Assembly: GCA_016183775.1 (NCBI GenBank)
Contig: JACPDY010000098.1
Span: 13,547 to 77,546, forward strand
Direction of reading: 5' to 3'
Length of the DNA stretch: 64,000 nt
Origin: Bacteroidota bacterium
Lineage (GTDB): Bacteria > Bacteroidota > Bacteroidia > JABDFU01
The notes beneath the pieces are model-generated. The model was given only the letters and a program-made list of their open reading frames with translations. It had not been told where the DNA came from and searched no databases. Each line of letters opens with the position of its first letter. Position 1 is the stretch's first letter. A program made the translations under genes and the position numbers. Positions 18,469 through 46,213 of this stretch are shown piece after piece.

Positions 18469-19401
18469 TTATAGCTGCAATTCCTTAAAACTCCTGTTGA
18501 GAAATACGGTTATCATTTCCTTCCGGTATTCCCGGGAGTACACGTCGTTATCCACAATCCTGGACTTTTTAACTGCTATCCGGATCATTTCCTCTTTATT
18601 ATCCGATTGATTTCCTTCAATAACAATTGGTCCGGGATCAATGCAGCCTAATACAATTTTAATTTTCCCCTGTTTATTAATGGTTACTGCGCTAGTTAAA
18701 GATCCAAAGTCCATGCTTTCCCGTGGCCTTAATTTTATAAACCGCGAACGGTGTTCTTCATGAAGCGGGAGGTAAATAGCCTTGATGAGTGATGTTCTTT
18801 TGATCTTGAGAGAATTAATTCCATTCCGGCTATAGATGTCTTCGAGACGAGACATATAGCCTTCGCTATATTCAATGACTTCTACACATGCGTTCATACT
18901 AATTAATGCAATAGCCATATCAGAAACGAACTTTGAAAAGCAATTCTTTTTCCCTCCTGTCGCAATACACGTATCTCCATTACATTTGAGACAATTACCG
19001 ACCGCATTTCTCCACCATTTGGTTTGATTGTAAAATGTACAGCGATTTTCACATAAAATATTCCCCCCGATAGTAGCTGTCTTTCGTATCACGGGCGTTG
19101 CCACTGCATTTGAGGTTTCTATCAGCAATGGGAATTCACTTACGATATCCGGATTCTCTTTTAAAGCATCTAAGGAAACGGCTGCGCCAATTTTCAGGTG
19201 TTTGCCGTTCCGGTTGATTTGTCTCATGTCATCAATATCAGATATATCAATCAGGCAGGATGATGAATTGTTACCGTGCAGCGTATTTACAATGACATCA
19301 GTTCCGCCTGCAATGAAACTAAAATCACTTCCGCATTCGTGAGCCAGTTTTACAGCTTCTTCAACTGTTTTTGGCCGGATATATTTTTCCATCGCAGTCA
19401 T
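18469..19401 (-). CDS. Xanthine-dehydrogenase-family FAD-binding medium subunit with a Cys-rich insertion (HcrB-like).
   Basis: CoxM/XdhB-type FAD domain (FSFIAGGTDVIVN, TIGGN). Has an extra CENRCTFYNQTKWWRNAVGNCLKCNGDTCIATGGKKNC loop like the 4Fe-4S insertion of 4-hydroxybenzoyl-CoA reductase beta subunit. Confidence 0.8.
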   Translation of the reverse strand: MTAMEKYIRPKTVEEAVKLAHECGSDFSFIAGGTDVIVNTLHGNNSSSCLIDISDIDDMRQINRNGKHLKIGAAVSLDALKENPDIVSEFPLLIETSNAVATPVIRKTATIGGNILCENRCTFYNQTKWWRNAVGNCLKCNGDTCIATGGKKNCFSKFVSDMAIALISMNACVEVIEYSEGYMSRLEDIYSRNGINSLKIKRTSLIKAIYLPLHEEHRSRFIKLRPRESMDFGSLTSAVTINKQGKIKIVLGCIDPGPIVIEGNQSDNKEEMIRIAVKKSRIVDNDVYSREYRKEMITVFLNRSFKELQL

Positions 19402-19402
19402 T

Positions 19403-22204: not shown

Positions 22205-22205
22205 T

Positions 22206-22946
22206 TTAAATCATATTACTTCCAATACTTTTACCGCCATCCACATAAATTGTTTGACCTGTTATAAACTGTGTCGTTTCTGCAGCCAGGAAGGAAACTG
22301 CGGTTGCCACATCCTCCGGTTTTCCCATGGACTTTGTTGGCTGCGCTTCAATTAATTTTCCTAAAATTTCCTTTTCCAATTTTTGTGTAAGCGGTGTGTC
22401 AATTAGCCCCGGGGCTATTGCATTTACAAACACATTATATTTGCCGAGCTCGAGGGCTAAAGCTCGTGTAAGCGAAACAACACCTGCTTTGGATGCGGAG
22501 TAATTACTTTGTCCGCGATTCCCAAGCCATGCGCGTGAAGATATGTTAATGATTCGCCCCCCATTTTGCCTTTTCATAATTATTGCCGCTTCCCGGCACA
22601 TTAACCAGGTACCTTTCAGGTTTATATTTATTACTGTATCAAATTCGGCAGTAGTCATGTTCCAGATCAGGTTATCACGAATAACGCCGGCATTGTTTAC
22701 CAGTATATCAACCTGTTTGTGCTTCGAAATAATTTTCTGAAATAATTGTTGGATGATTTTCTCTTTGGTGATGTCGGCTTTGGCAAAGCTCAATTTGTCT
22801 TTGCCGAATTCAGCCAAAAGCTTTTTGCCGCCATTTTCATCTATATCAATCGCGATTACAAAACAGTTATCTGCAATGAGTTTCTTTACGATCGCTTTTC
22901 CAATACCTTTTCCTGCGCCGGTTACGAGTGCAATTCTTTTTCCCAT
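22206..22946 (-). CDS. SDR-family NAD(P)-dependent oxidoreductase.
   Basis: TGAGKGIGKAI Rossmann motif, NNAG, and YSASKAG catalytic triad region. Confidence 0.85.
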   Translation of the reverse strand: MGKRIALVTGAGKGIGKAIVKKLIADNCFVIAIDIDENGGKKLLAEFGKDKLSFAKADITKEKIIQQLFQKIISKHKQVDILVNNAGVIRDNLIWNMTTAEFDTVININLKGTWLMCREAAIIMKRQNGGRIINISSRAWLGNRGQSNYSASKAGVVSLTRALALELGKYNVFVNAIAPGLIDTPLTQKLEKEILGKLIEAQPTKSMGKPEDVATAVSFLAAETTQFITGQTIYVDGGKSIGSNMI

Positions 22947-23710
22947 TGTTTCACATTGTTTTTAACTAGTATTAATTTCGCCAAAATGCTAAACGCTATT
23001 TCATCCGGCCCTTCGGCTCCGATATTAATACCCATGGGCATATCAACTGTTTCCAGTTTTTCTTCCGGTATGTTTAGCCCCTGTACAAATATTTTTTTTG
23101 TCATTTCAACTTTCCGCCGGCTCCCGATCATGCCCAAATATGCGAATGGCTTTTTTAGGCAAAAGGCCAGAATATCTCTGTCCTTTGGATGACTGTGAGT
23201 CATAATACAGATAAAAGTGTTTTCATCGAATGGAAGCAGCTGCAATGCCTTTTGACAGGGTATATTCATTTTATTGACCTCCTCAGTAGTACATTGGTTA
23301 ATGTATTCTTTACGTTCATCAATTAAAACAATTTCGAAATTGAGATTGCTGGCATACCTAGCAAGTGCCTGGCCGGTATGCCCGGCACCAAAAATGTATA
23401 ATTTGTTCATTTTCATAATCGGCTCAATGTAAATGTCCACCGTTCCTCCACAACACATATTATGTTGGTTCAATAAATCATGCCGATAAAGCTTTGGCCT
23501 CTTCTCACTAATTGTCGACAATGCATTACCAATAACTTTTCTTTCTAATTCTCCTCCTCCTATGGTTCCGTAAATTTGACCATCGGAATAAACTATCATC
23601 TTTGCACCAATCTTTCTGGGAGTACTTCCATGTGTATTCACAACGGTGCATAGTGCCACTCCCTGATTAATTGCTTCAGCTTCAGCTATCTTTTTATATA
23701 AGTCCTTCAC
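22922..23710 (-). CDS. XdhC/CoxI-family molybdoenzyme maturation factor.
   Basis: Family-typical NAD-binding-like central region (KLYIFGAGHTGQALA). Sits in the Mo-enzyme operon. Confidence 0.75.
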   Translation of the reverse strand: MKDLYKKIAEAEAINQGVALCTVVNTHGSTPRKIGAKMIVYSDGQIYGTIGGGELERKVIGNALSTISEKRPKLYRHDLLNQHNMCCGGTVDIYIEPIMKMNKLYIFGAGHTGQALARYASNLNFEIVLIDERKEYINQCTTEEVNKMNIPCQKALQLLPFDENTFICIMTHSHPKDRDILAFCLKKPFAYLGMIGSRRKVEMTKKIFVQGLNIPEEKLETVDMPMGINIGAEGPDEIAFSILAKLILVKNNVKQWEKELHS

Positions 23711-24314
23711 TTATTTTTACTTTTTGCTCAATAGCCCTTTCGTAATCATCCGGAGTATTTATATTGGTCAATATATATTCGTCGTTAACAATAATGTTCC
23801 GCCTTGGAAACCCCGACAAAACACTTCTGAGATTTAAATCCTGATCAGGAATTACTGAACTCACATACCGTATAATATTTTTTGAGATTACGATAGGATG
23901 ACCGTTTTTGCCCTGGTAAGAAGGAATAGTGTATCCATATGAATTTCTGTTCTCCAGCAAATTTTTAATGGTTTCCATATTCACAAAGGGGTTATCAATA
24001 TTCTGAATGAAACAACAATCCATGTCCATCATCCTTTCCATCCCGAGTTTAATAGAATGAAATCTTCCGGCTTCACGTGCAGGGCTTCTGACTATTTCAG
24101 AAGTTGGCAGTACTTCGTCAATGTATTTGCTCCACTCATCACTGCAGAAATCTGAATTCAATACAACACAGATATTTTTTATTCCCGCATTCCAATATCT
24201 GTCAACAATTCTTTTCAGAAACGTTTCACCCTGGTACAAGAGATAGGCTTTCGGAAAATTCATCCGTTCTGATTTCCCTCCTGCCAAAATGAGTGCTCCG
24301 GTCATATTATTCAT
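23694..24314 (-). CDS. MobA/MocA-like molybdenum cofactor nucleotidyltransferase (probable cytidylyltransferase for the MCD cofactor).
   Basis: MTGALILAGGKSERM N-terminal signature. ORF opens at 24371, but the likely start is Met at 24314 or 24305, clear of the palindrome at 24363-24376. Confidence 0.75.
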   Translation of the reverse strand: MNNMTGALILAGGKSERMNFPKAYLLYQGETFLKRIVDRYWNAGIKNICVVLNSDFCSDEWSKYIDEVLPTSEIVRSPAREAGRFHSIKLGMERMMDMDCCFIQNIDNPFVNMETIKNLLENRNSYGYTIPSYQGKNGHPIVISKNIIRYVSSVIPDQDLNLRSVLSGFPRRNIIVNDEYILTNINTPDDYERAIEQKVKISEGLI

Positions 24315-24362
24315 TCTCAGTCCATTTATATACGAAAGTATTCTTATTCGCCTTTTAATATT

Positions 24363-24376
24363 ATGATTCAAATCAT
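24363..24376. promoter_or_regulatory. Candidate Crp/Fnr-family site ATGATTCAAATCAT in the divergent promoter region between the Mo-enzyme operon and the bcr/hgd-like operon.
   Basis: Perfect palindrome. 48 bp upstream of the 24424 ATG and ~50 bp upstream of the mobA-like start. Confidence 0.5.
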
Positions 24377-24423
24377 AGTATTTTCATTGGCATTGGAGTT
24401 ATTTTGTTTAAAATAAATTTGAA

Positions 24424-25587
24424 ATGAAATCTCTTGATGCCATACTGAAAGAATGCGAAGAGCTTGCTTTCGATTTAAATTTTTCACGTGCTAAAAAATG
24501 GAAAGCGGAACACAAGGATCGGATTTTAGTAGGGTATCTACCGATTTATATTCCGCGCGAGATCATACATGCCGCAAGTGGTCTTCCGGTTGGCATCATG
24601 GGGGCGGGCGACAGAAAACAAATAATCAAAGGCGACGCCTATTATCAGTCCTATATTTGCCATTTGCCCCGTGGCATTATTGAAATGGCACTCGATACTA
24701 ATTTAAGCGGGTTTGACGGGTTCCTGTTTCCTGCGATTTGCGATTGCGTAAGAAATCTTTCCGGAATGTTTAAGCTCTCTCATAAAGGAAAATTTCAAAG
24801 ATATTTTGATTACCCTCAAAACTTTGACGCTTTCGTTGGTGGAACTTTTTACGTTCAGGAAATGGAAAAAGTAATGGAAGACATGTATAATATTAACAAA
24901 GTTAAAGTTGCTGAAGAAAATATAAATAAGGCGATTATACTCTATAATAGAAATCGAAAGTTGATCGAAGAAATATATAATATCCGGCAACAATATCCCT
25001 GGAGGTTATCTGCGGTAGAAACATATTTCATCCTCCGGGCGGGAATCACAATACCTGTTGAAGAGCATAATAAAATACTAGATCAGGTATTGGTTTATAT
25101 TAATGAAGAACGGGGTGAACCAATGGATAATATTCGTGTTGTTGTTTCGGGCTCGTTTTGTGAACAACCTCCTGTCGGGTTAATAAAATCAATAGAAATG
25201 GCAGGATGTTATATTGTGGATGATGACTTTATGCTTGGGTCACGGTGGATACAGGGCGAAATTAATTCGGCTGCTGATAATCCTTTGAAATCCCTTGCGA
25301 ATGCGTATATCAATCAAAGTACATTTTCATCCGCGTATTATGATGTGGGAAATCCGAAGGGAAAACGATTGGTTGAATTGGCAAAAGCGAGAAATGCAGA
25401 CGGAATTATTTTTTCCGCGGCCAGCTTCTGTGATCCGGCTTTGCTCGATAGGCCGCAGATGCAGAAGGAATGTGATGAAGCGGGAATTCCCCATATCAAT
25501 TTTCAGTTTCATGAAAACACAGGACAGTTTAAGGTTATTAAAGAACAGGCAGGTACATTCTCAGATTCGATTAAACTATGGGCCTGA
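24424..25587 (+). CDS. 2-Hydroxyacyl-CoA dehydratase / benzoyl-CoA reductase family component (HgdB/BcrC-like).
   Basis: 387 aa, the size of BcrC (386 aa). Conserved Cys for the [4Fe-4S] cluster (ICDCVRN, SFCDPAL). HgdB-type N-terminus. Confidence 0.75.
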   Translation: MKSLDAILKECEELAFDLNFSRAKKWKAEHKDRILVGYLPIYIPREIIHAASGLPVGIMGAGDRKQIIKGDAYYQSYICHLPRGIIEMALDTNLSGFDGFLFPAICDCVRNLSGMFKLSHKGKFQRYFDYPQNFDAFVGGTFYVQEMEKVMEDMYNINKVKVAEENINKAIILYNRNRKLIEEIYNIRQQYPWRLSAVETYFILRAGITIPVEEHNKILDQVLVYINEERGEPMDNIRVVVSGSFCEQPPVGLIKSIEMAGCYIVDDDFMLGSRWIQGEINSAADNPLKSLANAYINQSTFSSAYYDVGNPKGKRLVELAKARNADGIIFSAASFCDPALLDRPQMQKECDEAGIPHINFQFHENTGQFKVIKEQAGTFSDSIKLWA

Positions 25588-29407: not shown

Positions 29408-29451
29408 AGTAAAATACGGTTTAATTTATACTCCCCATATATCACGAAAAC

Positions 29452-30870: not shown

Positions 30871-30922
30871 CCGCTACGAAGCTAATGTCATGCTAAACTG
30901 CACTTTATTACTTTTAAAAAAT

Positions 30923-33821: not shown

Positions 33822-34020
33822 TTTTAAACGGAGACAGGACTTCGTTAAAATACTAATGCAGGGAAATGGCGCCGGTAGGATCCGACATAAAAACCCCCAT
33901 TACAACTCATAATAGGAGTCTGTAATCAGTCTCATTCTTCTCAGATAATTGTTGCCCAAAGGATATTAACAGTGCTGCGGCAGAGCTGTATTCCTCGGTA
34001 ATATTCATCCCTTATAAAAT

Positions 34021-34034
34021 ATGATGCACATCAT
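34021..34034. promoter_or_regulatory. Candidate Crp/Fnr-family site ATGATGCACATCAT, ~125 bp upstream of the BcrD-like ATPase operon.
   Basis: Perfect TGAT-N4-ATCA palindrome in a 336-bp intergenic region. Confidence 0.45.
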
Positions 34035-34157
34035 AGAATAACTGTGCATTTCAGCGTTTCTTTATTACACCTAATTGGTCATTTTCCCCAGAATGAAATA
34101 TTTCATTCGCAACACGATTGATACAAATAGCATATTAACCTCAATATATTAAAGACT

Positions 34158-37962: not shown

Positions 37963-39788
37963 GTAACAAACAAAAAATAAAAGCAGGTGTTATAGGCTTA
38001 GGTCCTGTGGGGATGATACTGGCTGTTCATTTACAGGAATCGGGATGTGATGTCCTGATTTGCGACAATGACAGGATCAAGATTAATCAGATAAAGAATG
38101 AGGGAATTAAACTTGAAAATATAATTCAAAAGAGAGAAAAATTTGAACACATTTATGCTTCCACTTCAGAATTGCTTGATCAAAATCCTGATTATGTTTT
38201 TATTGCTTTGAAATCCTACCAGGTGGAAAGTGTTCTTAAAGATCTCCCGGAAGATAATACTTCCATTTTCATTAGTGCCCAAAATGGAATTGACATAGAG
38301 AATATAATTGCGGAAAAGGTAGGGGCCGCCAGGACTATGCGATTAGTTATCAATTTCGCAGGTAATTCACTGTCGCCTAATTGTGTTAAAGTAACTTTTT
38401 TTAATCCCCCAAATTATCTGGCTTGCCTTGACGACAATAAAAAAGAAAGCTCCGAAGTTATTTCCGATTTGTTTAATAAAGTGGGTCTTCAAACAAAGGC
38501 AATTACTCCTTTCGAATTGACCAGGTGCGCATGGGAGAAGACCATTTTAAATGCTTCCCTCAGTCCGCTCTGCGGAATCGGGCGATTTACGATGGCTGAG
38601 GCAATGGCATTTCCGGATACAATTGAACTTGTGGAACAAATTATTGAAGAAGCCATTGAAGTGGCGGAAGCCGAAAAAATCCGCTTCCCTGATGATTTTA
38701 TCCGAAATTGCCTTCGCTATCTGAAAAATGGCGGAAATCACTATCCATCACTCGCCGGCGATTTAATGAACAAGCGACAAACAGAGATTGATTATATGAA
38801 TGGAAAAATTGTAGAGTACGGAAGGAAGCATTATATCCGGACTTCGCTCAATCTTTCGATGGTGAATATGGTAAAAGCCATGACACATAAAACGCTTCTT
38901 TCCCAATTTTCATCCAGGCCGTCAATCTCACAGAAGCCGATACTGAATATACAAAACAAAATCAACCCTAAAGGAAGTTGTTTCCTTGGCATTGATTTAG
39001 GTTCTGCATATACAAAGTTGACAGTTATTGATGAAAATAAAAATGTTGTATTCCGCTATACATTAAAGACGCTAAACCGTGATAAAATAGCCTCCAGGCA
39101 TATTATTAATGCTATACACGAGGAATTTCCCGTCAAATATAGTTGTGCTACCGGTTACGGAAGAAAAACATTTACAGATGCTGATATTGTAAAGACCGAG
39201 ATTAATTGTGCGGCCCTGGGGGCTAATGAATTTGTACCCGGAGAAAAGAACATACTTGATATTGGAGGTGAAGATATTAAGATGATTCATTGCGACACTC
39301 AGGGACGGGTGGAAAATTTTTATCTCAACGATAAATGTGCTGCCGGAACAGGTGTTTTTCTGATTGAAATTGCAGAACGTGCAGGAATCGACATAAACGA
39401 GATGAGTCGCCTCGCAGCGCAGTCAGAATACAAACAGGAATTAAACAGTTTTTGTACTGTATTTGCAAAAACTGAAATCATGAAATGGATTTTTGACGGG
39501 CAGCCGATTGAGAATCTCGCGAAAGGAATCTATCTCTCTATCGGGAATCGCATAGCCAAAATGAGAATACATCCTTCTGTACCTATTGTCATGATTGGCG
39601 GGGTAGTTGCATACCATCCATATTTAAAAATATTACTGGAGGAAAAGTTGGGAAGGCAGATTGTCGTCTTGGAGCATCCTCAGCATATTGTTTCATTCGG
39701 AGCAGCACTTATTGCCCGCGAACAGCTTCTGATGCAGACCAAACAGGAATCATTCTCAGAATCACAAAAAATAATTAAAAAATTATGA
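37959..39788 (+). CDS. Fusion protein: N-terminal 2-dehydropantoate 2-reductase (ApbA/PanE)-like NAD(P)H oxidoreductase plus C-terminal BcrAD/HgdC-type activase ATPase.
   Basis: N-terminus AGVIGLGPVGMILAVHL (GxGxxG), then a KPR C-terminal domain. Linker is followed by LGIDLGSAYTKLTVI ... NDKCAAGTGVF activase motifs. Confidence 0.8.
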   Translation: MSNKQKIKAGVIGLGPVGMILAVHLQESGCDVLICDNDRIKINQIKNEGIKLENIIQKREKFEHIYASTSELLDQNPDYVFIALKSYQVESVLKDLPEDNTSIFISAQNGIDIENIIAEKVGAARTMRLVINFAGNSLSPNCVKVTFFNPPNYLACLDDNKKESSEVISDLFNKVGLQTKAITPFELTRCAWEKTILNASLSPLCGIGRFTMAEAMAFPDTIELVEQIIEEAIEVAEAEKIRFPDDFIRNCLRYLKNGGNHYPSLAGDLMNKRQTEIDYMNGKIVEYGRKHYIRTSLNLSMVNMVKAMTHKTLLSQFSSRPSISQKPILNIQNKINPKGSCFLGIDLGSAYTKLTVIDENKNVVFRYTLKTLNRDKIASRHIINAIHEEFPVKYSCATGYGRKTFTDADIVKTEINCAALGANEFVPGEKNILDIGGEDIKMIHCDTQGRVENFYLNDKCAAGTGVFLIEIAERAGIDINEMSRLAAQSEYKQELNSFCTVFAKTEIMKWIFDGQPIENLAKGIYLSIGNRIAKMRIHPSVPIVMIGGVVAYHPYLKILLEEKLGRQIVVLEHPQHIVSFGAALIAREQLLMQTKQESFSESQKIIKKL

Positions 39789-41047
39789 AAGGGTATCATC
39801 ATAAACAAAAGGGAGTCGGAATAATCTTTGATAATATTTTTCTGGTAAATGGAGCCCGTACTCCGTTCGGAAGGTATTGTGGGACACTTTCACATGTTTC
39901 TCCGACCGATTTGGGTATATATGCAAGCCGTGGAGCCCTCGACAGGTGCACCTTATCGCCTAATGACATTGATCAAATAATTGTTGCCAACATCGGTCAA
40001 AGTTCCTGCGATGCCTATTTTCTGCCCCGACACATTGGATTATTCACCGGTATTCCCACTGAAGTACCGGCGCTGATGGTGCAAAGAATTTGTGGATCCG
40101 GATTTGAGGTGATTATAACCGCATCGGAACAGATTACTCTTAATAAAGCACAGGCCGTGTTATGCACAGGAACCGAAAATATGTCATTGGCACCTACTGT
40201 AAGTTTTGGAAACAGGATGGGATATCCTTTAGGGCGCCCGGTATTTAAAGACATGCTTTGGGAAGCTCTTGATGATACTGCTGCAGGCTATCCAATGGGA
40301 TATACAGCAGAAAATGTAGCTAAAAAGTATAATATTACCAGGAAAGACACGGATGAGTACGCGAAGCTTTCGTTTGACAGGGCAGTTATTGCTTCCGAAA
40401 GAGGAGTTTTTAAAGAAGAGATTGTTCCCATACAAAATTCCGTATTTGAAATCGAGGGATTAAAATCAAGGAAAATAACTCTTCCAAAAGGAATTGCTTC
40501 ATTGGCTTCTGATGAACACATCCGGGCCACAACCTTTGAAGCATTGTCGAAACTTCCTTCTGTTTTTAGTGATGTCGGCGTTCTTACTGCAGGAAATTCA
40601 AGTGGGATTGTTGATGGAGCTGCATCGGTTATTATCGCGGATCGTTTATTCATAGAGAACCGGGCATTAAAACCAATTTCAAGAGTTGTTGCCGCTGCAA
40701 GTTGTGGGATTGATCCGAAAATTATGGGACTCGCACCTGTTCCTGCTATCAGGCTCCTGCTTGAGATGACAGGGTTGAAGATAGATGACATAGGTCTTTT
40801 TGAGATTAACGAAGCGTTCTCAGCTCAGGTTATTGGATGCGAACGCGAACTGAATATAGACAGGAGTATACTTAATGTTAACGGAGGAGCAATTGCCATA
40901 GGTCACCCGCTGGCAGCTACTGGCGGACGCTTATCACTTACAATTTCAAAAGAAATGACCCGGAGGAAAGTGAAATATGGCATTGCCTCAGCCTGTATCG
41001 GCGGTGGACAAGGAACAGCCCTACTATTTGAAAATGTAAATTATTGA
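39785..41047 (+). CDS. Acetyl-CoA C-acyltransferase (thiolase).
   Basis: Thiolase motifs NGARTPFGRY, RICGSGFE (active Cys) and C-terminal GIASACIGGGQGTAL. Confidence 0.9.
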   Translation: MKGYHHKQKGVGIIFDNIFLVNGARTPFGRYCGTLSHVSPTDLGIYASRGALDRCTLSPNDIDQIIVANIGQSSCDAYFLPRHIGLFTGIPTEVPALMVQRICGSGFEVIITASEQITLNKAQAVLCTGTENMSLAPTVSFGNRMGYPLGRPVFKDMLWEALDDTAAGYPMGYTAENVAKKYNITRKDTDEYAKLSFDRAVIASERGVFKEEIVPIQNSVFEIEGLKSRKITLPKGIASLASDEHIRATTFEALSKLPSVFSDVGVLTAGNSSGIVDGAASVIIADRLFIENRALKPISRVVAAASCGIDPKIMGLAPVPAIRLLLEMTGLKIDDIGLFEINEAFSAQVIGCERELNIDRSILNVNGGAIAIGHPLAATGGRLSLTISKEMTRRKVKYGIASACIGGGQGTALLFENVNY

Positions 41048-41050
41048 GAA

Positions 41051-41242
41051 ATGAGCCGTTGGAAATACCCATTTAATACAAAGGCGCATGCTGAGAAATA
41101 CCTGAAACAGGCAGAGCAGGAGACAGGAAAAAGATGTTTCATTCGCCAGGTTTCAACCAGAGCGCATGTGTTTAAAATATTTTCATCTGAGACTGAATAT
41201 ATAGAATATCAAAAGAAAAAAAGTACAGGACATGGGCACTAA
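41051..41242 (+). CDS. Small hypothetical protein (63 aa) filling the thiolase-ADH gap.
   Basis: Fits exactly between neighbouring genes and overlaps the next start by 11 bp. No recognisable motif. Confidence 0.3.
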   Translation: MSRWKYPFNTKAHAEKYLKQAEQETGKRCFIRQVSTRAHVFKIFSSETEYIEYQKKKSTGHGH

Positions 41243-42296
41243 TCGATTATATCAATGGCAAATGGTGGAAACCGATCAGGAATTTCGCTTAATAGAAAGC
41301 AATTTACCTGAAGTGAAAAACGGAGAGGTGCTTGTAAAAGTTTCCGGATGCGGGGTCTGCCACACTGATTTAAGCTTTTGGCACTCGGGTGTTCAAACCA
41401 AGCATGCATTGCCACTTACACTCGGACACGAAATCAGTGGAGTAGTGATTGCCGGCAATAAAAACTGGCTAAAGAAAAAAATAATCATTCCGGCCGTTCT
41501 ACCCTGCGGAGAATGCGAATTATGTAAAAAGGGCCGAAGCAATATTTGTCGCAACCAGCTAATGCCTGGAAATGATTTTCATGGAGGCTTTGCTTCACAC
41601 ATTAAGGTTCCTTCAAAGTTTTTGTGTCCTGTTTCTGAAAATATTTTAAAAAAGTATTCGCTCGAACAATTAGCAGTAATTGCGGATGCTATATCAACTC
41701 CTTACCAGGTAGTGGAAAAATCTGAACTGGAAGCGGGCGACCTGGCTATTGTAATCGGGGTTGGCGGAGTCGGTTTGTATGGGGCGTTGATTGCAAAGAT
41801 ATTCGGAGCAAAAGTTATCGCTCTTGATCTCAGTGACGAGAAGCTGAACATTGCTTTGAATAACGGGGTAGATGCCATTCTTAATATAAAAGGAATGGAC
41901 ATAAAAGCGATTAAGGAAAGGGTGAAAGAAATTGCAAAGAGTATCAAAGCCCCGAAGATTGGCTGGAAGATATTTGAGATAAGCGGTACAAAGGCCGGTC
42001 AGGATCTTGCATTTAATCTGATCACTTTTACTTCAACGCTTTCTATAGTTGGTTTCACAATGGATAAAGTAGAAGTAAGACTGAGTAATTTAATGGCTTT
42101 CGATGCGAAACTAATCGGAACATGGGGATGCAGAGCTGAATTATATCCTAAAGTTCTGGACCTAATTGAAAGCGGGAAACTTGAAATTTCCGGATTTGTT
42201 CAGACATTCCCTATGTCAAAAATAAATGAAGTATTTAAAAATACATTGGAGCACAAATACAATAAGCGTTCCGTCCTTGTCCCTGATTTTAATTAA
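41232..42296 (+). CDS. Zinc-dependent MDR alcohol/hydroxyacyl-CoA dehydrogenase (Had-like).
   Basis: GHEISGVV catalytic Zn motif, CGECELCKKGRSNIC structural Zn Cys, and GVGGVGLYGALIA Rossmann fold. Confidence 0.85.
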   Translation: MGTNRLYQWQMVETDQEFRLIESNLPEVKNGEVLVKVSGCGVCHTDLSFWHSGVQTKHALPLTLGHEISGVVIAGNKNWLKKKIIIPAVLPCGECELCKKGRSNICRNQLMPGNDFHGGFASHIKVPSKFLCPVSENILKKYSLEQLAVIADAISTPYQVVEKSELEAGDLAIVIGVGGVGLYGALIAKIFGAKVIALDLSDEKLNIALNNGVDAILNIKGMDIKAIKERVKEIAKSIKAPKIGWKIFEISGTKAGQDLAFNLITFTSTLSIVGFTMDKVEVRLSNLMAFDAKLIGTWGCRAELYPKVLDLIESGKLEISGFVQTFPMSKINEVFKNTLEHKYNKRSVLVPDFN

Positions 42297-42312: not shown

Positions 42313-43413
42313 ATGGAAAATTTAAAAAGTCACAAACTTGTTGATGTAAATTACAAGGAAATTATTTTTGAAAAAAGGGCTTGCCTGGATAAGGAAGGGA
42401 TACCTGTCAAAGATTTATACAACGCATGGATAGTTCTGAACAATCCAAAGCAATTCAATTCGTATACTACACAGGCCATAAAGGAAGTAATTCTTGCATT
42501 CGGAGAGGCTTCAAATGACAGAAGTATTGTTGCGGTAGTATTTACATCCGTTGGTGATAAAGCATTTTGCACAGGAGGAAATACAAAAGAGTACGCGGAA
42601 TACTATTCCGGAAATCCACAGGAATATTCACAATACATGCGCCTCTTTAATGATATGGTGAGTGCCATTTTAAAATGTGAGAAGCCGGTTATATGTCGCG
42701 TAAACGGAATGCGTATAGGTGGTGGACAAGAAATTGGAATGGCCTGCGATTTCAGTATTGCGGGCGATATGGCACGATTCGGCCAGGCAGGACCCAAACA
42801 TGGAAGCGCACCTATCGGGGGTGCTACTGATTTTCTTCCTCTTTTTATAGGTGTGGAACGTGCTATGATGTCGCTTACATTATGTGAGCCATGGAGTGCG
42901 CATCAGGCATATTATTATGGAGTTATCAGTGAAATAGTACCTGTACTCAGGCATAATGGAAAATTTATTTCTAATCCAATGGTGGTCACGGATAGGATCG
43001 TTGATGAATTCGGACGGCTTGTTTTTGGTACATCCAAAACAGGTGACGCATTAAAAGCGGCGAAGGAAATTATAGCAGCATCGGAAATAGATTTAAGTAT
43101 GCTGGATTCGGCAGTGAATAAACTCATAGCTAAACTCCTGAATACGTTCCCCAATTGTACGAATAAAACTATTTCGGAAGTACGTAAGTTCAAATTGGAG
43201 CATTGGGATAAAAACAAGGAAAGCAGCAGGGAATGGCTCGCATTAAATATGATGACCGAAGCAAAAGCCGGCTTTAAAGCATTTAATGAGGGGCCTAAAG
43301 AAAACCGCGAAGTTGATTTTATTAAACTCCGGCAATTGCTTGCCAATGGCCATGAATGGAATGAAGAATTACACAGAATAATTTCTCCACAATATCAAAA
43401 AGTAAATTCTTGA
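42313..43413 (+). CDS. Crotonase-superfamily enzyme with a long C-terminal extension (candidate ring-hydrolysing 6-oxocyclohex-1-ene-1-carbonyl-CoA hydrolase, Oah/BamA-like; MenB-like alternative).
   Basis: Enoyl-CoA hydratase core (FCTGGN...GGGQEIGMACDFSIA). At 366 aa it is ~100 aa longer than ordinary ECH, matching Oah size. Confidence 0.6.
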   Translation: MENLKSHKLVDVNYKEIIFEKRACLDKEGIPVKDLYNAWIVLNNPKQFNSYTTQAIKEVILAFGEASNDRSIVAVVFTSVGDKAFCTGGNTKEYAEYYSGNPQEYSQYMRLFNDMVSAILKCEKPVICRVNGMRIGGGQEIGMACDFSIAGDMARFGQAGPKHGSAPIGGATDFLPLFIGVERAMMSLTLCEPWSAHQAYYYGVISEIVPVLRHNGKFISNPMVVTDRIVDEFGRLVFGTSKTGDALKAAKEIIAASEIDLSMLDSAVNKLIAKLLNTFPNCTNKTISEVRKFKLEHWDKNKESSREWLALNMMTEAKAGFKAFNEGPKENREVDFIKLRQLLANGHEWNEELHRIISPQYQKVNS

Positions 43414-44189
43414 ATATGGAAAAGATAAAAATTGAATTTAAAAATGATAATTCTGTCGCACGGATAATTCTCGATGACGGCAAAGGGAATGTGTTGGACC
43501 ATGTTATGATGGAAGAGTTAAAACAGATTCTGAATTCATTTAAGAGCAGTTCTCAAATAAAGCTGATTACCATGGAAGGAAATGGAAAGCATTTCTCATT
43601 TGGAGCCAGTATTGAGGAGCATAAGAGGGAATTCGCCGCGACAATGATTCGCGAATTTCATCAATTGTTTTATATTATTCGTGATTTAACAATACCTATG
43701 GCTGCCAAAATCAGCGGAAGTTGTTTAGGAGGAGGGTTAGAACTCGCGCTCATGTGCAACTTCATGTTTGCCGACAAGACTGCCAGGCTTGGACAGCCCG
43801 AGATTTCGCTGGGAGTATTTCCTCCTCCCGCTTCCATACTTCTTCCGGAGAAAATCGGATTGGCAAAAGCCGAGGATCTGCTTATTACCGGAAGAATAAT
43901 TACCGCTGAGGAGGCAAAGTCAATCGGGCTTGTAAATGAATTATTTGATACGAGAGATACTATGGATTCAGGGGTTGAAAAATGGGTGGAGAGTTATATC
44001 CTTCCCAAAAGCGCGTCTTCGCTTCATTTTGCTGTAAAAGCTGTAAGAATAAAATTTAATCATGTTATCAGTAATTTCTTACCGCAGTTAGAATCAATCT
44101 ATGCAAATCAACTGATGCAAACACATGATGCGAATGAAGGCATCAATTCCTTTTTGGAGAAGAGAAAACCGGTTTGGAGCAATAATTAA
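43410..44189 (+). CDS. Enoyl-CoA hydratase (Dch-sized, 259 aa).
   Basis: Crotonase motifs GNGKHFSFGASIEE and GGGLELALMCNFMFA. Confidence 0.85.
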   Translation: MNMEKIKIEFKNDNSVARIILDDGKGNVLDHVMMEELKQILNSFKSSSQIKLITMEGNGKHFSFGASIEEHKREFAATMIREFHQLFYIIRDLTIPMAAKISGSCLGGGLELALMCNFMFADKTARLGQPEISLGVFPPPASILLPEKIGLAKAEDLLITGRIITAEEAKSIGLVNELFDTRDTMDSGVEKWVESYILPKSASSLHFAVKAVRIKFNHVISNFLPQLESIYANQLMQTHDANEGINSFLEKRKPVWSNN

Positions 44190-44200
44190 ATTATTTTATT

Positions 44201-46213
44201 ATGAAAACTATTAAAACAGTTGGTGTTGTTGGTGCAGGAACTATGGGTTCCGCCCTTGCACAAAAATTCTTACAGGAAGGGTTCAAAGTAATTCTTGCCG
44301 ATCGCGCTATAAATTTCGCTGAAAAAGGATTGGAAATGATCAGGAGCTCGCTTAATCAGGGCTTGCAGAAATACATTTTTACATATGAACAGCTAAGTGA
44401 ATACTTGTCCAATTTAAAAATAACAGATACGCTTACAGATTTAAAAGGATGTGATTTGATTGTTGAAGCAATTTATGAAAACTTCAACGCTAAAACTACA
44501 CTATTTAAAGAACTTTGTGTCATAATTCCTCCCGACACAATTCTTGCGACTAACACATCTTCATTTTCTGTTACGGAATTATCCGCTGCCGTAAGCCACC
44601 CGGAAAGATTTATCGGACTGCATTATTTTTATCATGCAGCCAAAAACCGGTTGGTGGAAATTATTCCGGGCGATAAAACGTCTGAAGAGACTACCCAAAC
44701 GGCATACCGGTTTTCTATCTTGTCGGGTAAAGATCCTATCTATAGCCGGGATGCTTATGGATTTGTAGTCAACAGGTTTTTTGTTCCATGGCTGAATGAA
44801 GCAGTTCGCTTATACGAAGAAAATGTAGCATCCATTGAACAAATTGAAACTGTTTGTAAAGAGCTCTTTGGAATAACAATGGGTCCATTTGAATTGATGA
44901 ATGTGACCGGAATCCCAGTCGCATATCATGCGGAAAAGACTCTTGAAGTATTCGGTAATTTATATAAAGTTGCGAAAGCACTGGAGAAACAAACCAAAGA
45001 AAATCAACTATGGACATTGAAAATTGCCGGCGAAGAAGCTGATAAGACCATTCCCATTAAAGTGAAGCAGGAAATTAAAGATAGAATGCTGGGTGTTATA
45101 TTTTTTATCTGCTCACAAATTCTGGATGAAAAAATATGCAGTGCGGCAGAGATAGATCGGGGTGCTAAAATCGGGCTAAAATGGAAAAAGGGTCCTATTG
45201 AATTGATGAAAGAACAGGGCGAAGACGAAGTGACATGTATCATAGTTAAATTAATTGACCGGTATAATATGAAATTACCGGATTCAATCGGGAAGAAATA
45301 CTGGACACCAAATTATGTAAAACTAAAAAGCAAAGGAACCATTGCAGTTATTACAATGGATCAGCCCGAAAATCTGAATGCTTTAAGCGAAGAAACTGTT
45401 AAGCAGTTGGGAGAATGTTTCAATAAAGCCGAAAGGAATCCGCTTGTTAAAACTGTTTTTATAACCGGCTCCGGAAAGGCATTTGTTGCAGGGGCGGACA
45501 TTAAATTCTTTGTTAAGAATATAAAAAAAGAAAGGATTTGCGACATAGAGACGTTTACCGAATTCGGCCAGAAAATTTTTGACAACATTGATAATTCAAG
45601 CAAAAAAGTAGTTGCCATTATTAATGGATTGGCATTGGGTGGAGGACTTGAGCTTGCGCTTTGTGCTGATGTAATACTTGCGTTGCCAAAGGCCCAAATG
45701 GCATTTCCTGAAACAGGTATAGGAATTTATCCAGGTCTTGGAGGCACACAACGTTCTGTGAGGAAAATTGGGAGAGGGCTAAGTAAATACCTTATTCACA
45801 CCGGTAAAATGCTTTCTGCCACAGAAGCAGAAGAAATAGGACTTGTTGACAAAATTATTTCAAGAGAAGAAATGTTTTCTATACTATCAGGTGAGATAGA
45901 CGCTCCACTAATCAATAAGAAAAATATGAAGTCAGAATGGATAGCTATAAGAGATTTCTTCGAGAAAAATTCCCTGAAGGCAATTCTTGATAAAAACTAT
46001 TCCGATGCTGGATTGACTTCTGAATATGCCGAAAAGCTTGCGAAAACAGTTCGATTCAAGGCGCCAATTGCGTTAAAACTTGCCGATCAACTTATTGATG
46101 AAGCGAAAGGTTGCACGTCAGAACTGGAACACTTGCGTGAAATATTTTCGACATCCGATGCTTTATTGGGGCTTACCTCCATTGGTGAAAAAGTAAATTA
46201 CCTCGGAAAATAA
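44201..46213 (+). CDS. Bifunctional 3-hydroxyacyl-CoA dehydrogenase (N-terminal) / enoyl-CoA hydratase (C-terminal).
   Basis: VGVVGAGTMGSALAQ NAD-binding N-terminus. C-terminal crotonase (ITGSGKAFVAGADI, GGGLELALCADV). Confidence 0.9.
   Translation: MKTIKTVGVVGAGTMGSALAQKFLQEGFKVILADRAINFAEKGLEMIRSSLNQGLQKYIFTYEQLSEYLSNLKITDTLTDLKGCDLIVEAIYENFNAKTTLFKELCVIIPPDTILATNTSSFSVTELSAAVSHPERFIGLHYFYHAAKNRLVEIIPGDKTSEETTQTAYRFSILSGKDPIYSRDAYGFVVNRFFVPWLNEAVRLYEENVASIEQIETVCKELFGITMGPFELMNVTGIPVAYHAEKTLEVFGNLYKVAKALEKQTKENQLWTLKIAGEEADKTIPIKVKQEIKDRMLGVIFFICSQILDEKICSAAEIDRGAKIGLKWKKGPIELMKEQGEDEVTCIIVKLIDRYNMKLPDSIGKKYWTPNYVKLKSKGTIAVITMDQPENLNALSEETVKQLGECFNKAERNPLVKTVFITGSGKAFVAGADIKFFVKNIKKERICDIETFTEFGQKIFDNIDNSSKKVVAIINGLALGGGLELALCADVILALPKAQMAFPETGIGIYPGLGGTQRSVRKIGRGLSKYLIHTGKMLSATEAEEIGLVDKIISREEMFSILSGEIDAPLINKKNMKSEWIAIRDFFEKNSLKAILDKNYSDAGLTSEYAEKLAKTVRFKAPIALKLADQLIDEAKGCTSELEHLREIFSTSDALLGLTSIGEKVNYLGK

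Follow-up and report, generated by a model that had tools for sequence, protein, structure and literature searches.

The 64,000-nucleotide stretch analysed here (the window; contig JACPDY010000098.1, positions 13,547 to 77,546) raises the question whether a member of the Bacteroidota encodes anaerobic degradation of aromatic compounds via benzoyl-CoA, or a 2-hydroxyacyl-CoA dehydratase for amino-acid fermentation. Both possibilities had been put forward in a first-pass annotation, and all open reading frames named therein were recovered at the coordinates it gave (Table 1). Proteins were assigned by means of NCBIfam equivalog models with their cut-offs, Pfam and PDB sequence matches; gene order was surveyed in 80 loci, out of 332 GTDB species matches, and additionally in loci L082–L084. 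The region is best read as a single conserved catabolic unit of Bacteroidota for anoxic aromatic-ring breakdown via benzoyl-CoA, with pathway roles predicted from curated family models. The complete explanation, i.e., a benzoyl-CoA pathway combined with a dehydratase-like module fed by phenylalanine/tyrosine and placed under Fnr-type control together with nitrate respiration, is considered probable.

Table 1. Features of the window discussed in the text (positions count from the first letter of the window)
Feature	Position	Strand	Evidence or remark
Fnr-like Crp-family regulator (N-terminal CxxCx9C + central Cys)	4218..4964	+	palindrome at 4176-4191
korAB-type two-subunit 2-oxoacid:ferredoxin oxidoreductase	9475..12395	-	TIGR03710 651 bits (cut-off 483), TIGR02177 262 bits; palindrome at 12646-12661
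FAD subunit, 310 aa, 4-Cys ([4Fe-4S]) loop at residues ~117-154	18469..19401	-	TIGR03195 191 bits (cut-off 404), best match
Gamma (2x[2Fe-2S])-alpha (Mo-cofactor) fusion, 933 aa	19403..22204	-	TIGR03194 819 bits (cut-off 995), TIGR03193 166 bits
SDR (FabG-like), XdhC-type Mo-cofactor insertion protein, MobA/MocA-like nucleotidyltransferase	22206..24371	-	Pfam
Palindrome TATGATTCAAATCATA, candidate Fnr-family operator	24362..24377	.	62 bp upstream of bcrC
bcrC (gamma-type catalytic-module subunit)	24424..25587	+	TIGR02263 461 bits (cut-off 421)
bcrB (substrate-binding catalytic subunit)	25770..27071	+	TIGR02260 697 bits (cut-off 487)
bcrA (large ATPase, BcrA-type insertion), 472 aa	27098..28516	+	TIGR02259 436 bits (cut-off 578)
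Four-gene insertion between bcrA and bcrD	28583..33821	.	NCBIfam/Pfam
Palindrome, second copy TATGATGCACATCATA	34020..34035	.	upstream of bcrD
bcrD (small ATPase)	34158..34997	+	TIGR02261 308 bits (cut-off 313)
AMP-forming acyl-CoA ligase (AMP-binding + AMP-binding_C_3)	34997..36742	+	Pfam/NCBIfam
HGD3, third HGD-D protein, alpha-type HadB-like radical dehydratase subunit	36745..37962	+	HadB model 235 bits
PanE/ApbA-type 2-oxoacid reductase (~1-310) :: HadI/HgdC-type activase ATPase (~340-590)	37959..39788	+	Pfam/NCBIfam
Thiolase (3-oxoacyl-CoA thiolase)	39785..41047	+	Pfam, TIGR01930 380 bits
had, 6-hydroxycyclohex-1-ene-1-carbonyl-CoA dehydrogenase	41232..42296	+	TIGR03201 445 bits (cut-off 339)
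oah, 6-oxocyclohex-1-ene-1-carbonyl-CoA hydrolase (ring cleavage), 366 aa	42313..43413	+	TIGR03200 591 bits (cut-off 464)
dch-like, cyclohexa-1,5-diene-1-carbonyl-CoA hydratase	43410..44189	+	TIGR03189 224 bits (cut-off 292.5)
3-Hydroxyacyl-CoA dehydrogenase/enoyl-CoA hydratase (HAD/ECH) fusion	44201..46213	+	Pfam/NCBIfam; PDB FadB-type
Cytochrome c-narG-narH-(narJ-position ORF)-narI operon	47499..55149	-	palindrome at 55134-55149
Second Fnr-like gene	55644-56387		Fnr-type Cys motif; past nar operon
narK genes beyond second Fnr-like gene	first at 56521		palindrome at 56404

Benzoyl-CoA reductase and ring cleavage

All four subunits of a BcrCBAD-type reductase are encoded, as the first-pass annotation had proposed: BcrB (433 aa, with an ATG start backed by homologues of the same length) and BcrC exceed the equivalog cut-offs, and BcrA and BcrD have the respective BCR model as best match below the cut-off (BcrD 4 bits short; BcrA aligned end to end). 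The nearest PDB relative of BcrC is MbdN (207 bits), and BcrB matches MbdO (193 bits), HadB (153 bits) and BzdO (83 bits), in each case with the three cluster cysteines aligned. Both cluster cysteines are kept in BcrA and BcrD; indeed, neither the two catalytic subunits nor any of the operon's three ATPases has lost its cluster-ligand cysteines. That BcrC and BcrB (24424-27071) constitute a 2-hydroxyacyl-CoA dehydratase for amino-acid fermentation, a benzoyl-CoA reductase being absent, would be compatible with their Pfam family HGD-D, which spans dehydratases as well as reductases, but can practically be dismissed, being contradicted by the model scores (697 and 461 bits for BcrB and BcrC on BCR-type models versus 200 and 162 on HadB and HadC, and 90 and 89 on BzdO and BzdN), by MbdO and MbdN as closest structures, by the two BcrA/BcrD-type ATPases, and by Had and Oah, specific for the dienoyl-CoA route, sharing the operon with bcrCB.

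BcrCBAD is thus predicted to be an ATP-dependent class I reductase of the Thauera BCR type, converting benzoyl-CoA to the 1,5-dienoyl-CoA, with KorAB as probable source of reduced ferredoxin. The korAB genes, likewise named in the first-pass annotation, are present at some distance in the window, close the bcr operon in L084 and adjoin it in L061. Subsequently, Dch would hydrate the dienoyl-CoA, Had would oxidise the product and Oah would open the ring to 3-hydroxypimelyl-CoA, the later β-oxidation steps being attributable to the HAD/ECH fusion and the thiolase. Had and Oah both score above their cut-offs, the 366-aa crotonase clearly being Oah rather than BadI (120 bits) or MenB (107–117 bits). 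In case of Dch, TIGR03189 is the top match despite the score below cut-off, and the gene position matches that in L082 and L084. The thiolase and the HAD/ECH fusion were also found as annotated; the position of the former is conserved in 39–40 loci, and the latter is the final operon gene or precedes korAB in L082–L084. Pfam scans of the window detected neither a ferredoxin gene nor, as already remarked in the first pass, an acyl-CoA (glutaryl-CoA) dehydrogenase gene; complete oxidation would require glutaryl-CoA dehydrogenase and ferredoxin from genes elsewhere.

The organization resembles that of Thauera aromatica, in which the reductase genes have the same order C-B-A-D, in the occurrence of Dch, Had and Oah downstream instead of the BadK/H/I route of Rhodopseudomonas, and in the linkage of a two-subunit KorAB to the cluster. 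It differs in the host (Bacteroidota/Ignavibacteria versus Proteobacteria), in lacking a ferredoxin gene and a benzoate-CoA ligase of the usual type, in containing the dehydratase-like module and β-oxidation genes within the operon, and in BcrA, BcrD and Dch scoring below equivalog cut-offs.

Affiliation of the window with the Bacteroidota, as presumed in the first pass, agrees with a T9SS CTD, the glycine-lipid acyltransferase GlsA and a collinear Bacteroidia MAG of ~85 % nucleotide identity. Related genomes also carry the reductase genes: matches were obtained in 332 GTDB species representatives, and of these the 80 listed, each one a MAG or uncultured assembly, have titles that nearly all name a MAG of the Bacteroidota/Ignavibacteria. 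In the 80 GTDB loci, as well as in L082–L084, the genes repeatedly follow the order bcrC-B-A-D-ligase-HGD3-PanE::activase-thiolase-had-oah-dch-HAD/ECH(-korAB), and since these 80 genomes are independent, the arrangement is not due to chance. No description of the gene set was found in the searchable literature. In this respect the pathway is indeed undescribed for Bacteroidetes, as had been supposed, but it is not unseen, since in many MAGs such proteins already bear the name 'benzoyl-CoA reductase subunit B', given by public pipelines.

A dehydratase-like module within the operon

The third HGD-D gene (HGD3) and the gene for a third ATPase, which carries a PanE domain as fusion partner, had been overlooked in the first pass. 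HGD3 is more similar to HadB than to BcrB (182 bits on the BcrB model; 174 bits to HadB in the PDB), and its AlphaFold model (pLDDT 96) matches HadB in Foldseek with a TM score of 0.90–0.92 and an rmsd of 2.0–2.2 Å. Residues E51, C80, C119 and C347 are invariant. The gene is present in 45 of the 53 loci with sufficient downstream sequence, and a beta partner was found in none of the contexts examined. The PanE::activase protein matches HadI (140 bits) and the KPR family (72–80 bits) in the PDB, displays the GxGxxG, catalytic Lys and TEID motifs and possesses both cluster cysteines of the activase. Among its 696 homologues, all 120 listed are fused. Whereas PanE is joined to the activase here, distant relatives carry it on the HGD-D subunit; unfused versions of PanE, HGD-D, activase and ligase are likewise encountered away from bcr, and beside such modules a second HGD-D gene was never seen in the contexts examined. 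In one distant genome without bcr, the module adjoins an unrelated XDH-family enzyme.

The adjacent ligase is most similar to oxalate-CoA ligase among PDB entries (127 bits; benzoate-CoA ligase 58 bits). In 20 loci it is replaced by an ADP-forming acyl-CoA synthetase, AMP- and ADP-forming ligases interchanging at the same position within and outside bcr operons, and it also accompanies HGD-D and activase genes outside of them. By sequence, the ligase is part of the dehydratase-like module and not of the benzoate-CoA ligase type; the acyl-CoA ligase which the first pass counted among the pathway genes thus exists, but has a different affiliation. Since its CoA ligase belongs to the module, the operon lacks a dedicated benzoate-CoA ligase.

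Sequence, structure model and gene context suggest that HGD3, PanE::activase and the ligase form a single-subunit 2-hydroxyacyl-CoA-dehydratase-like module. The dehydratase proposed in the first pass, refuted for BcrB/BcrC, is borne out in kind by HGD3. Known 2-hydroxyacyl-CoA dehydratases are alpha/beta heterodimers, and to our knowledge a single-subunit enzyme of the HGD3 kind has not been demonstrated. The module would convert a 2-oxoacid via the (R)-2-hydroxyacid and the 2-hydroxyacyl-CoA to the 2-enoyl-CoA. It may be fed by arylpyruvates or aryllactates derived from phenylalanine and tyrosine: as no benzoate-CoA ligase is encoded in the operon, phenylpyruvate/phenyllactate and the 4-hydroxy forms from tyrosine represent the most coherent substrates. 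One round of β-oxidation of the resulting cinnamoyl-CoA or 4-coumaroyl-CoA would then yield benzoyl-CoA or 4-hydroxybenzoyl-CoA. However, the nearest solved relatives of the ligase use small dicarboxylates (oxalate, malonate) rather than aryl acids.

The latter finding could indicate that, with the benzoyl-CoA pathway retained, the module handles an aliphatic dicarboxylic 2-oxoacid, aromatic acids entering via a ligase encoded elsewhere. Candidates are 2-oxoglutarate (via 2-hydroxyglutaryl-CoA to glutaconyl-CoA) and 2-oxoadipate (via 2-hydroxyadipoyl-CoA to 2,3-dehydroadipyl-CoA), the products of which would feed into the aliphatic reactions at the lower end of the pathway. Besides oxalate-CoA and malonyl-CoA ligases as closest solved relatives, good scores of the thiolase on 3-oxoadipyl-CoA thiolase models, a saccharopine-dehydrogenase-like gene within the operon in 11 loci and the occurrence of the module without bcr are in accord with such a function. 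Nevertheless it appears unlikely: the fixed position of the module between bcrD and the thiolase gene in nearly every operon would be left unexplained, the TCA cycle offers a nitrate respirer a route for the oxidation of glutamate or 2-oxoglutarate, the operon contains neither glutaconyl-CoA decarboxylase nor glutaryl-CoA dehydrogenase, and the ligase similarities are weak (≤127 bits).

Still less probable is an accessory role of HGD3 and the fusion protein in ring reduction, be it as second ATP-driven reductase/dehydroxylase for substituted benzoyl-CoAs or as helper in electron delivery. HGD3 does resemble BcrB, MbdO and BzdO (182 bits; TM 0.87–0.89), shares with them the conserved Glu and three Cys, and its module is tightly linked to bcr in the operon. 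Yet HadB is nearer to HGD3 than any reductase subunit in every comparison, known class I reductases require two different HGD-D subunits plus two ATPases, and the PanE fusion, the dedicated CoA ligase and the bcr-free occurrence better fit a route from 2-oxoacid to enoyl-CoA.

The closest known counterparts of the proposed aryl-acid-fed dehydratase module are the (R)-2-hydroxyisocaproyl-CoA dehydratase system of Clostridioides difficile (LdhA, HadA, HadI, HadBC) and the phenyllactate dehydratase of Clostridium sporogenes (FldABC/FldI). Common to them are a [4Fe-4S] subunit of the alpha type that has three Cys and a shared fold (TM 0.9; HGD3 modelled), a HadI-like ATP-dependent activator with two bridging-cluster Cys, and an accompanying D-2-hydroxyacid-forming reductase and CoA-activating enzyme. 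In contrast to both systems, the module was in none of the contexts examined accompanied by a beta subunit, and its reductase, which is of the PanE/ketopantoate-reductase type, is joined to the activator or, in distant relatives, to the dehydratase subunit. For CoA activation, an AMP- or ADP-forming ligase would take the place of the CoA-transferase, and the host is a respiratory organism rather than a fermenter.

A 4-hydroxybenzoyl-CoA reductase-like enzyme

The divergently oriented genes upstream of bcrC encode a Mo-enzyme, all three parts of which are closest to the 4-hydroxybenzoyl-CoA reductase of Thauera aromatica (HcrABC, PDB 1RM6), albeit below the equivalog cut-offs. The alpha part matches 1rm6_A with 599 bits (next PDB match 336), the top match of the gamma part is 1rm6_C, and the FAD subunit is nearest to 1rm6_B (125 bits) with all four loop cysteines aligned. 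The Cys-rich loop, recognized already in the first pass, is kept in 17 of 17 orthologues of the FAD subunit and corresponds to the beta-subunit insertion of HcrABC that binds an additional [4Fe-4S] cluster. With this presumably ferredoxin-accepting loop, the enzyme would remove the para-hydroxyl group, allowing hydroxylated aryl-CoAs to enter the pathway. The SDR, XdhC-type and MobA/MocA-like genes are co-transcribed with the Mo-enzyme and conserved upstream of bcrC in 31–41 of the 80 loci. Like HcrABC, the enzyme has the four-Cys insertion, and its genes adjoin bcr; the gamma-alpha fusion, the scores below cut-off and the co-transcription with an SDR set it apart.

Fnr-like regulators and nitrate respiration

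The palindrome TATGAT-N4-ATCATA occurs at 10 sites in the window (0.48 expected), nearly always in promoter regions, and precedes bcrC in 40 of 71 loci (0.046 expected). No enrichment was seen for the canonical Fnr box, TTGAT-N4-ATCAA. Both Crp-family regulators encoded in the window possess Cys motifs of the Fnr type and match Fnr best, scoring below the cut-off of the Fnr model. An O2-sensing Fnr-like regulator probably drives transcription by binding to the palindrome. Since sites precede not only bcrC and bcrD but also korAB, cytC-narGHJI, narK and the Fnr-like gene, the pathway would be co-expressed with nitrate respiration, and is best read as probably FNR-controlled and nitrate-linked. 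NarG, NarH and NarI (1459, 652 and 134 bits) each exceed the equivalog cut-off. The denitrifying aromatic degrader envisaged in the first pass is thus supported as to respiratory nitrate reduction, but not as to further steps, no nir, nor or nos genes having been found in the window.

The palindrome shares the TGAT-N4-ATCA core and spacing with the Fnr box of Escherichia coli and, as in Fnr/Crp regulons, the regulators have N-terminal Cys clusters and the targets comprise nitrate respiration and O2-sensitive enzymes. It differs from the E. coli box in its flanks (TATGAT...ATCATA), in the lack of enrichment of the canonical form and in being a predicted site.

A further observation, overlooked in the first pass, concerns the interruption of the operon between bcrA and bcrD. 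The insertion encodes the lyso-glycine-lipid acyltransferase GlsA, a PlsC-like acyltransferase, a LuxR response regulator (minus strand) and a TonB-dependent receptor, and lies outside the pathway. Most loci lack it, bcrD following bcrA directly or one gene later, and the complete four-gene insertion is common only to the window and L002. In other genomes, a palindrome in front of bcrD is confined to split operons (L002, L053, L066).

Predicted class I benzoyl-CoA reductase and lower pathway

The genes of the window were mapped by ORF listing and Pfam/NCBIfam scans, which were mutually consistent and confirmed the Thauera-type gene set described in the first-pass annotation. A third HGD-D gene (HGD3) and the gene for a PanE/ApbA::activase fusion protein were omitted from that description.

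Coordinates of genes and palindromic sites in the window, with model scores where available
Feature	Position	Strand	Basis
bcrC	24424-25587	+	TIGR02263, 461 bits (cut-off 421)
bcrB	25770-27071	+	TIGR02260, 697 bits (cut-off 487); 433 aa from homologue-backed ATG
bcrA	27098-28516	+	TIGR02259, 436 bits (cut-off 578), end-to-end alignment
Insertion of four unrelated genes	28583-33821	LuxR on -	GlsA, PlsC-like, LuxR, TonB-dependent receptor
bcrD	34158-34997	+	TIGR02261, 308 bits (cut-off 313)
AMP-forming CoA ligase	34997-36742	+	Pfam/NCBIfam
HGD3 (third HGD-D protein, 405 aa)	36745-37962	+	HadB model 235 bits, BcrB model 182 bits
PanE/ApbA::activase fusion (609 aa)	37959-39788	+	Pfam/NCBIfam
Thiolase	39785-41047	+	Pfam/NCBIfam
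had	41232-42296	+	TIGR03201, 445 bits (cut-off 339)
oah	42313-43413	+	TIGR03200, 591 bits (cut-off 464)
dch-like	43410-44189	+	TIGR03189, 224 bits (cut-off 292.5)
HAD/ECH fusion	44201-46213	+	Pfam/NCBIfam
MobA-like, XdhC, SDR, XDH-family Mo-enzyme (gamma-alpha fusion and FAD subunit)	18469-24371	divergent to bcr	
korAB	9475-12395		
cytC-narGHJI	47499-55125		narG, narH and narI all above equivalog cut-offs
Palindrome upstream of U32 operon	280		
Palindrome upstream of first Fnr-like gene	4176		
Palindrome upstream of korA	12646		
Palindrome upstream of bcrC	24362		
Palindrome upstream of LuxR/TonB receptor	30922		
Palindrome upstream of bcrD	34020		
Palindrome upstream of cytC-narG	55134		
Palindrome upstream of narK	56404		
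Palindrome inside an ORF	60596		
Palindrome upstream of ORF preceding moaA	61001		

Class I benzoyl-CoA reductases are split into BCR, MBR and BZD types (Fuchs et al. 2025, PMC11971306). As is characteristic of the BCR type, the window encodes two different HGD-D subunits that exceed the cut-offs of the equivalog models for BcrB (697 bits) and BcrC (461 bits), and the NCBIfam models place the enzyme in this type; the two subunits score far lower with the HadB/HadC (200 and 162 bits) and BzdO/BzdN (90 and 89 bits) models. Their nearest solved structures are MbdO (193 bits) and MbdN (207 bits) of the 3-methylbenzoyl-CoA reductase from Thauera chlorobenzoica, ahead of HadB/HadC. Based on curated HMM cut-offs and PDB relatives, rather than on percent identity to Thauera proteins, the two subunits are assigned to a benzoyl-CoA reductase rather than to a dehydratase, and the core interpretation of the first-pass annotation stands. 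Both ATPases have the right model as end-to-end top match, yet score below its cut-off. The three cysteine ligands of the [4Fe-4S] cluster are kept in each catalytic subunit (aligned with MbdO/MbdN, HadB/HadC and BzdO/BzdN), and both columns of the bridging-cluster cysteines are invariant across the three ATPases of the window. His131 of BzdO was dropped as a membership criterion, since a phenylalanine occupies this position here and in MbdO and the residue hence does not define the BCR and MBR types. A tblastn search of 72,556 plasmids with BcrB of the window, aimed at a Thauera-type reference, yielded only matches of at most 26 % identity, belonging to the dehydratase family where annotated.

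BcrCBAD is predicted to use ATP and reduced ferredoxin to convert benzoyl-CoA into cyclohexa-1,5-diene-1-carbonyl-CoA. A six-frame scan of the window for the ferredoxin motif CxxCxxCxxxC retrieved only NarH and a 660-aa Fer4/TPR protein, but no ferredoxin gene. Equivalogs of Had and Oah adjoin the reductase genes, as is typical of the Thauera-type lower pathway. The crotonase, for which a MenB or BadI affiliation had been considered, scores 591 bits with the Oah model versus 120 bits (BadI) and 107–117 bits (MenB). Dch has TIGR03189 as top match, though under its cut-off, and the position of its gene after oah is conserved. No gene for a glutaryl-CoA/acyl-CoA dehydrogenase is present in the window.

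Conserved operon in uncultured Bacteroidota and Ignavibacteria

To our knowledge, studies of class I benzoyl-CoA reductases have been confined almost entirely to Proteobacteria. Bacteroidota and Ignavibacteria are usually counted as degraders of polymers and proteins, not as anaerobic degraders of aromatic compounds. More than 6,900 BcrB homologues are found in databases (E ≤ 1e-30); the best 120 are 83–94 % identical, and the named ones among these are nearly all termed 'benzoyl-CoA reductase subunit B' and originate from Bacteroidetes, Bacteroidia, Flavobacteriales, Saprospirales or Ferruginibacter MAGs. Scanning one genome per GTDB species revealed 332 encoding stretches, of which the best 80 are nearly all titled Bacteroidota or Ignavibacteria; all of these 80 are MAGs or uncultured assemblies, with no cultured carrier seen. 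No published description of the operon or of the module embedded in it was found in the searchable literature. The operon is widespread among MAGs and has already received automatic annotations there, so that the lineage is less exotic than supposed in the first-pass annotation. Base composition (GC 0.36–0.43 throughout the window) gives no sign of a horizontally acquired genomic island.

The canonical gene order, derived from tblastn of the window proteins against related loci and from ORF clustering, is bcrC-bcrB-bcrA-bcrD-[ligase]-HGD3-PanE::activase-thiolase-had-oah-dch-HAD/ECH, with the ligase position occupied by an AMP ligase in 39 loci and by an ADP-forming acyl-CoA synthetase in 20. 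Two related loci (L082, L083) share this order, their fusion protein being assigned to 'Chlorobi bacterium' in the databases. In a third (L084), the operon ends with korA-korB, followed on the opposite strand by a hemerythrin gene and the gene for the Mo-enzyme FAD subunit. MAG JAEUTS01 is collinear with the window at ~85 % nucleotide identity, including the insertion. The conserved order in relatives indicates that the window holds the standard operon, split by the insertion between bcrA and bcrD.

Several accessory genes were observed at these loci. A gene for a saccharopine-dehydrogenase-like protein (~375 aa, no NCBIfam match; L031, 12723-13862; L082, 5042-6163) is located between bcrA and bcrD in 11 loci and absent from the window. 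Within the insertion, GlsA represents a lyso-glycine-lipid acyltransferase (347 bits, above cut-off), the PlsC-like protein is also an acyltransferase and the LuxR protein a response regulator; bcrA is followed by GlsA and/or PlsC-like genes in six other genomes. The operon variant with the ADP-forming synthetase (15–20 loci; e.g., L008, 13637-15604 and 17182-17646) contains a 154-aa ORF between HGD3 and the fusion gene, which matches only the start of AMP-binding_C_3 and resembles a leftover of the AMP ligase that was displaced. A hemerythrin-domain gene adjoins korB in the window (8926-9462) and lies directly beside bcrC or the Mo-enzyme genes in 33 of 80 related loci; its product may serve in sensing or scavenging of O2 beside O2-sensitive enzymes. 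The window also encodes a T9SS-sorted protein (14894-16978, Por_Secre_tail) with a lysyl-oxidase domain and a CHU_C-associated Ig-like domain.

The complete predicted pathway is encoded in this conserved operon in hundreds of uncultured Bacteroidota and Ignavibacteria species, whose habitats include groundwater, lakes, soils and wastewater. Provided that the pathway functions, estimates of anoxic aromatic-carbon turnover at sites of nitrate reduction would have to take these groups into account, and marker-gene surveys of bcr or bamA/oah would need to be read accordingly. New observations are the conserved embedded dehydratase-like module, its Rosetta-stone fusions and the shared candidate operator, which appear to make this a novel variant of a known pathway.

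Embedded dehydratase-like module and its proposed substrates

By curated HMM, PDB sequence search (174 bits versus 118 bits for MbdO) and predicted structure (pLDDT 96; Foldseek against 3o3m_A, TM 0.90–0.92, rmsd 2.0–2.2 Å), the nearest relative of HGD3 is HadB, which forms the substrate-binding alpha subunit of 2-hydroxyisocaproyl-CoA dehydratase. HGD3 is of the alpha type, with a TM of 0.9 to HadB and only ~0.72 to beta-type (HadC) subunits. An exhaustive HMMER search with HGD3 yielded a small family of 254 cluster representatives (E ≤ 1e-30). Family members invariably possess E51, C80, C119 and C347. In the fusion protein encoded next to HGD3, HadI is the nearest relative of the C-terminal half (140 bits), in which both cluster cysteines are kept. 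The N-terminal half belongs to the ketopantoate-reductase family, which includes D-2-hydroxyacid and D-mandelate dehydrogenases, and has intact GxGxxG, catalytic lysine (WEKTILN) and TEID motifs. All of the best 120 of 696 homologues share the fusion architecture; their database names refer to Bacteroidota or 'Chlorobi' MAGs and usually to '2-dehydropantoate 2-reductase'.

Of the 53 loci in which at least 9.5 kb of sequence follow bcrB, 45 contain HGD3, and 43 contain both HGD3 and the fusion gene. Some distant relatives of HGD3 (52 %, 41 % and 35 % identity) carry the PanE domain as a fusion with the HGD-D subunit rather than with the activase. Distant contexts contain (i) PanE::HGD-D and activase (L085), (ii) PanE, HGD-D and activase as separate proteins, plus a homologous AMP ligase (40 % identity), with an acyl-CoA dehydrogenase next to them (L086), (iii) HGD-D, activase and an ADP-forming ligase (L089), or (iv) HGD-D and activase (L091). 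From these contexts, which lie outside bcr operons, it is concluded that PanE reductase, one HGD-D protein, activase and CoA ligase probably constitute a recurring functional unit, and that the ligase is likely to belong to this unit rather than to the reductase. The module combines an activator with a three-cysteine alpha subunit, as in 2-hydroxyacyl-CoA dehydratases, but has one HGD-D gene instead of an alpha/beta pair; a second one is absent from the module here and from the four distant contexts. Its logic (reductase, CoA activation, radical dehydratase, activator) is that of the clostridial 2-hydroxyacid pathway, whereas it is built from different parts and without beta subunit. Given that its reductase is a fused PanE-type domain and that a CoA ligase is linked to it, the module is predicted to form an (E)-2-enoyl-CoA by dehydration of the (R)-2-hydroxyacyl-CoA. 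It points to a radical dehydratase without beta subunit, physically fused to its upstream reductase.

For all three parts of the divergently encoded Mo-enzyme, the best solved relative is the 4-hydroxybenzoyl-CoA reductase (4-HBCR) of Thauera: alpha has 599 bits to 1rm6_A versus 336 bits for the next PDB match, beta 125 bits (1rm6_B) and gamma 143 bits (1rm6_C). The FAD subunit contains the ~40-residue insertion with four cysteines aligning with the [4Fe-4S] loop of 1rm6_B, kept in 17 of 17 recovered orthologues. In 4-HBCR, this insertion carries a [4Fe-4S] cluster for reverse electron flow. The Cys-rich loop noted in the first-pass annotation is thus confirmed, but the 4-HBCR models, although top matches, stay under their equivalog cut-offs (alpha 819 vs 995, beta 191 vs 404, gamma 166 vs 258 bits), and the enzyme is therefore named 4-HBCR-like rather than a proven orthologue. 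In L085 (GCA_054682455.1, 10001-18157), the PanE::HGD-D fusion and activase genes are located directly upstream of a different XDH-family Mo-enzyme, accompanied by XdhC and a MobA-like gene and without bcr genes. An obligate partnership of Mo-enzyme and HGD3 module, considered from this locus, was rejected, since its alpha subunit shares only 40 % identity with that of the window and its FAD subunit, at 291 aa, leaves no room for the Cys loop of ~40 residues.

The operon encodes no benzoate-CoA-ligase-type enzyme, benzoate-CoA ligase being a distant PDB match (58 bits) to the ligase of the module. Hydratase, dehydrogenase and thiolase for one round of β-oxidation are all encoded in the operon, and for such a round to yield benzoyl-CoA, the starting enoyl-CoA must be cinnamoyl-CoA. 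The missing benzoate ligase, the β-oxidation set and the 4-HBCR-like enzyme together favour phenylpyruvate/phenyllactate and their 4-hydroxy analogues as the proposed entry substrates. Arylpyruvate would be reduced to (R)-aryllactate by the PanE-linked reductase, activated to aryllactyl-CoA and dehydrated to cinnamoyl-CoA or 4-coumaroyl-CoA by the single-subunit, PanE-linked 2-hydroxyacyl-CoA dehydratase. One round of β-oxidation would then form benzoyl-CoA or 4-hydroxybenzoyl-CoA, the tyrosine-derived latter being taken by the 4-HBCR-like enzyme, prior to ATP-dependent ring reduction of benzoyl-CoA. The module may accordingly represent an undescribed funnel of aromatic amino acids into benzoyl-CoA, hypothesized here as an anaerobic route for phenylalanine and tyrosine. 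A dicarboxylic 2-oxoacid (2-oxoglutarate or 2-oxoadipate) as substrate of the module stays a serious rival to these arylpyruvates, since the closest solved relatives of the ligase are oxalate-CoA (127 bits) and malonyl-CoA (106 bits) ligases, both scores being weak, and since the module is also found without bcr.

Candidate Fnr-type regulation and nitrate respiration

The canonical Fnr box of E. coli (TTGAT-N4-ATCAA, ≤1 mismatch) is not enriched in the window (13 versus 7.3 expected) and absent from the bcr promoters; it was therefore dropped as bcr operator in favour of the palindrome TATGAT-N4-ATCATA shared by the upstream regions of bcrC and bcrD. The latter (≤1 mismatch) occurs 10 times in the window versus 0.48 expected, a count reached by no shuffle. 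In GTDB loci, a site (≤2 mismatches, within 300 bp upstream) was detected at 40 of 71 bcrC promoters, versus 0.046 expected per stretch; it is essentially missing upstream of bcrB, HGD3 and the thiolase gene, and precedes bcrD only in the three genomes in which an insertion parts bcrD from bcrA.

The window also contains two narK genes and two genes for Fnr-like regulators. Both Crp-family proteins possess N-terminal cysteine clusters and a central cysteine and have Fnr as top model, below its cut-off. The enriched TGAT-N4-ATCA palindrome combined with such regulators corresponds to an Fnr-type regulon, which would join bcr, korAB and nitrate respiration via this candidate operator, a concrete handle on regulation. 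In the first-pass annotation, a coupling to narGHJI was suggested to make the organism a denitrifying degrader of aromatics. narG, narH and narI score above their cut-offs, but only the step from nitrate to nitrite is encoded in the window, leaving the label 'denitrifier' unsupported. A tentative and rather doubtful reading is that widespread uncultured members of the Bacteroidota and Ignavibacteria break down phenylalanine and tyrosine in the absence of O2 by an undescribed route via aryllactate and a single-subunit dehydratase, encoded in one Fnr-controlled operon co-regulated with nitrate respiration.

In the nar cluster, where narG, narH and narI are clearly equivalogs, the ORF at the position of narJ (48227-48931, 234 aa) is matched by neither Pfam nor NCBIfam. 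Downstream of narI, two short ORFs (46292-46669, 125 aa, no match in the Pfam scan; 47207-47485, 92 aa) encode predicted membrane proteins that are alike in their C-terminal hydrophobic segments. A four-gene cluster on the + strand (342-4098), with a palindrome ahead, encodes a U32 protein (top matches the prephenate-dependent hydroxylases TrhP and UbiU), a YhbP-family protein, a YciA-like thioesterase and a lyase of the tryptophanase/tyrosine-phenol-lyase family (NF009709, 674 bits). The U32 and YhbP genes are located upstream of bcr in 6–7 other genomes, and the lyase gene is also present in the related loci L037 and L053. At 60596-62735, two palindromes precede a 241-aa ORF without annotation and moaA (TIGR02666, 338 bits), which suggests that Mo-cofactor synthesis is part of the same regulon.
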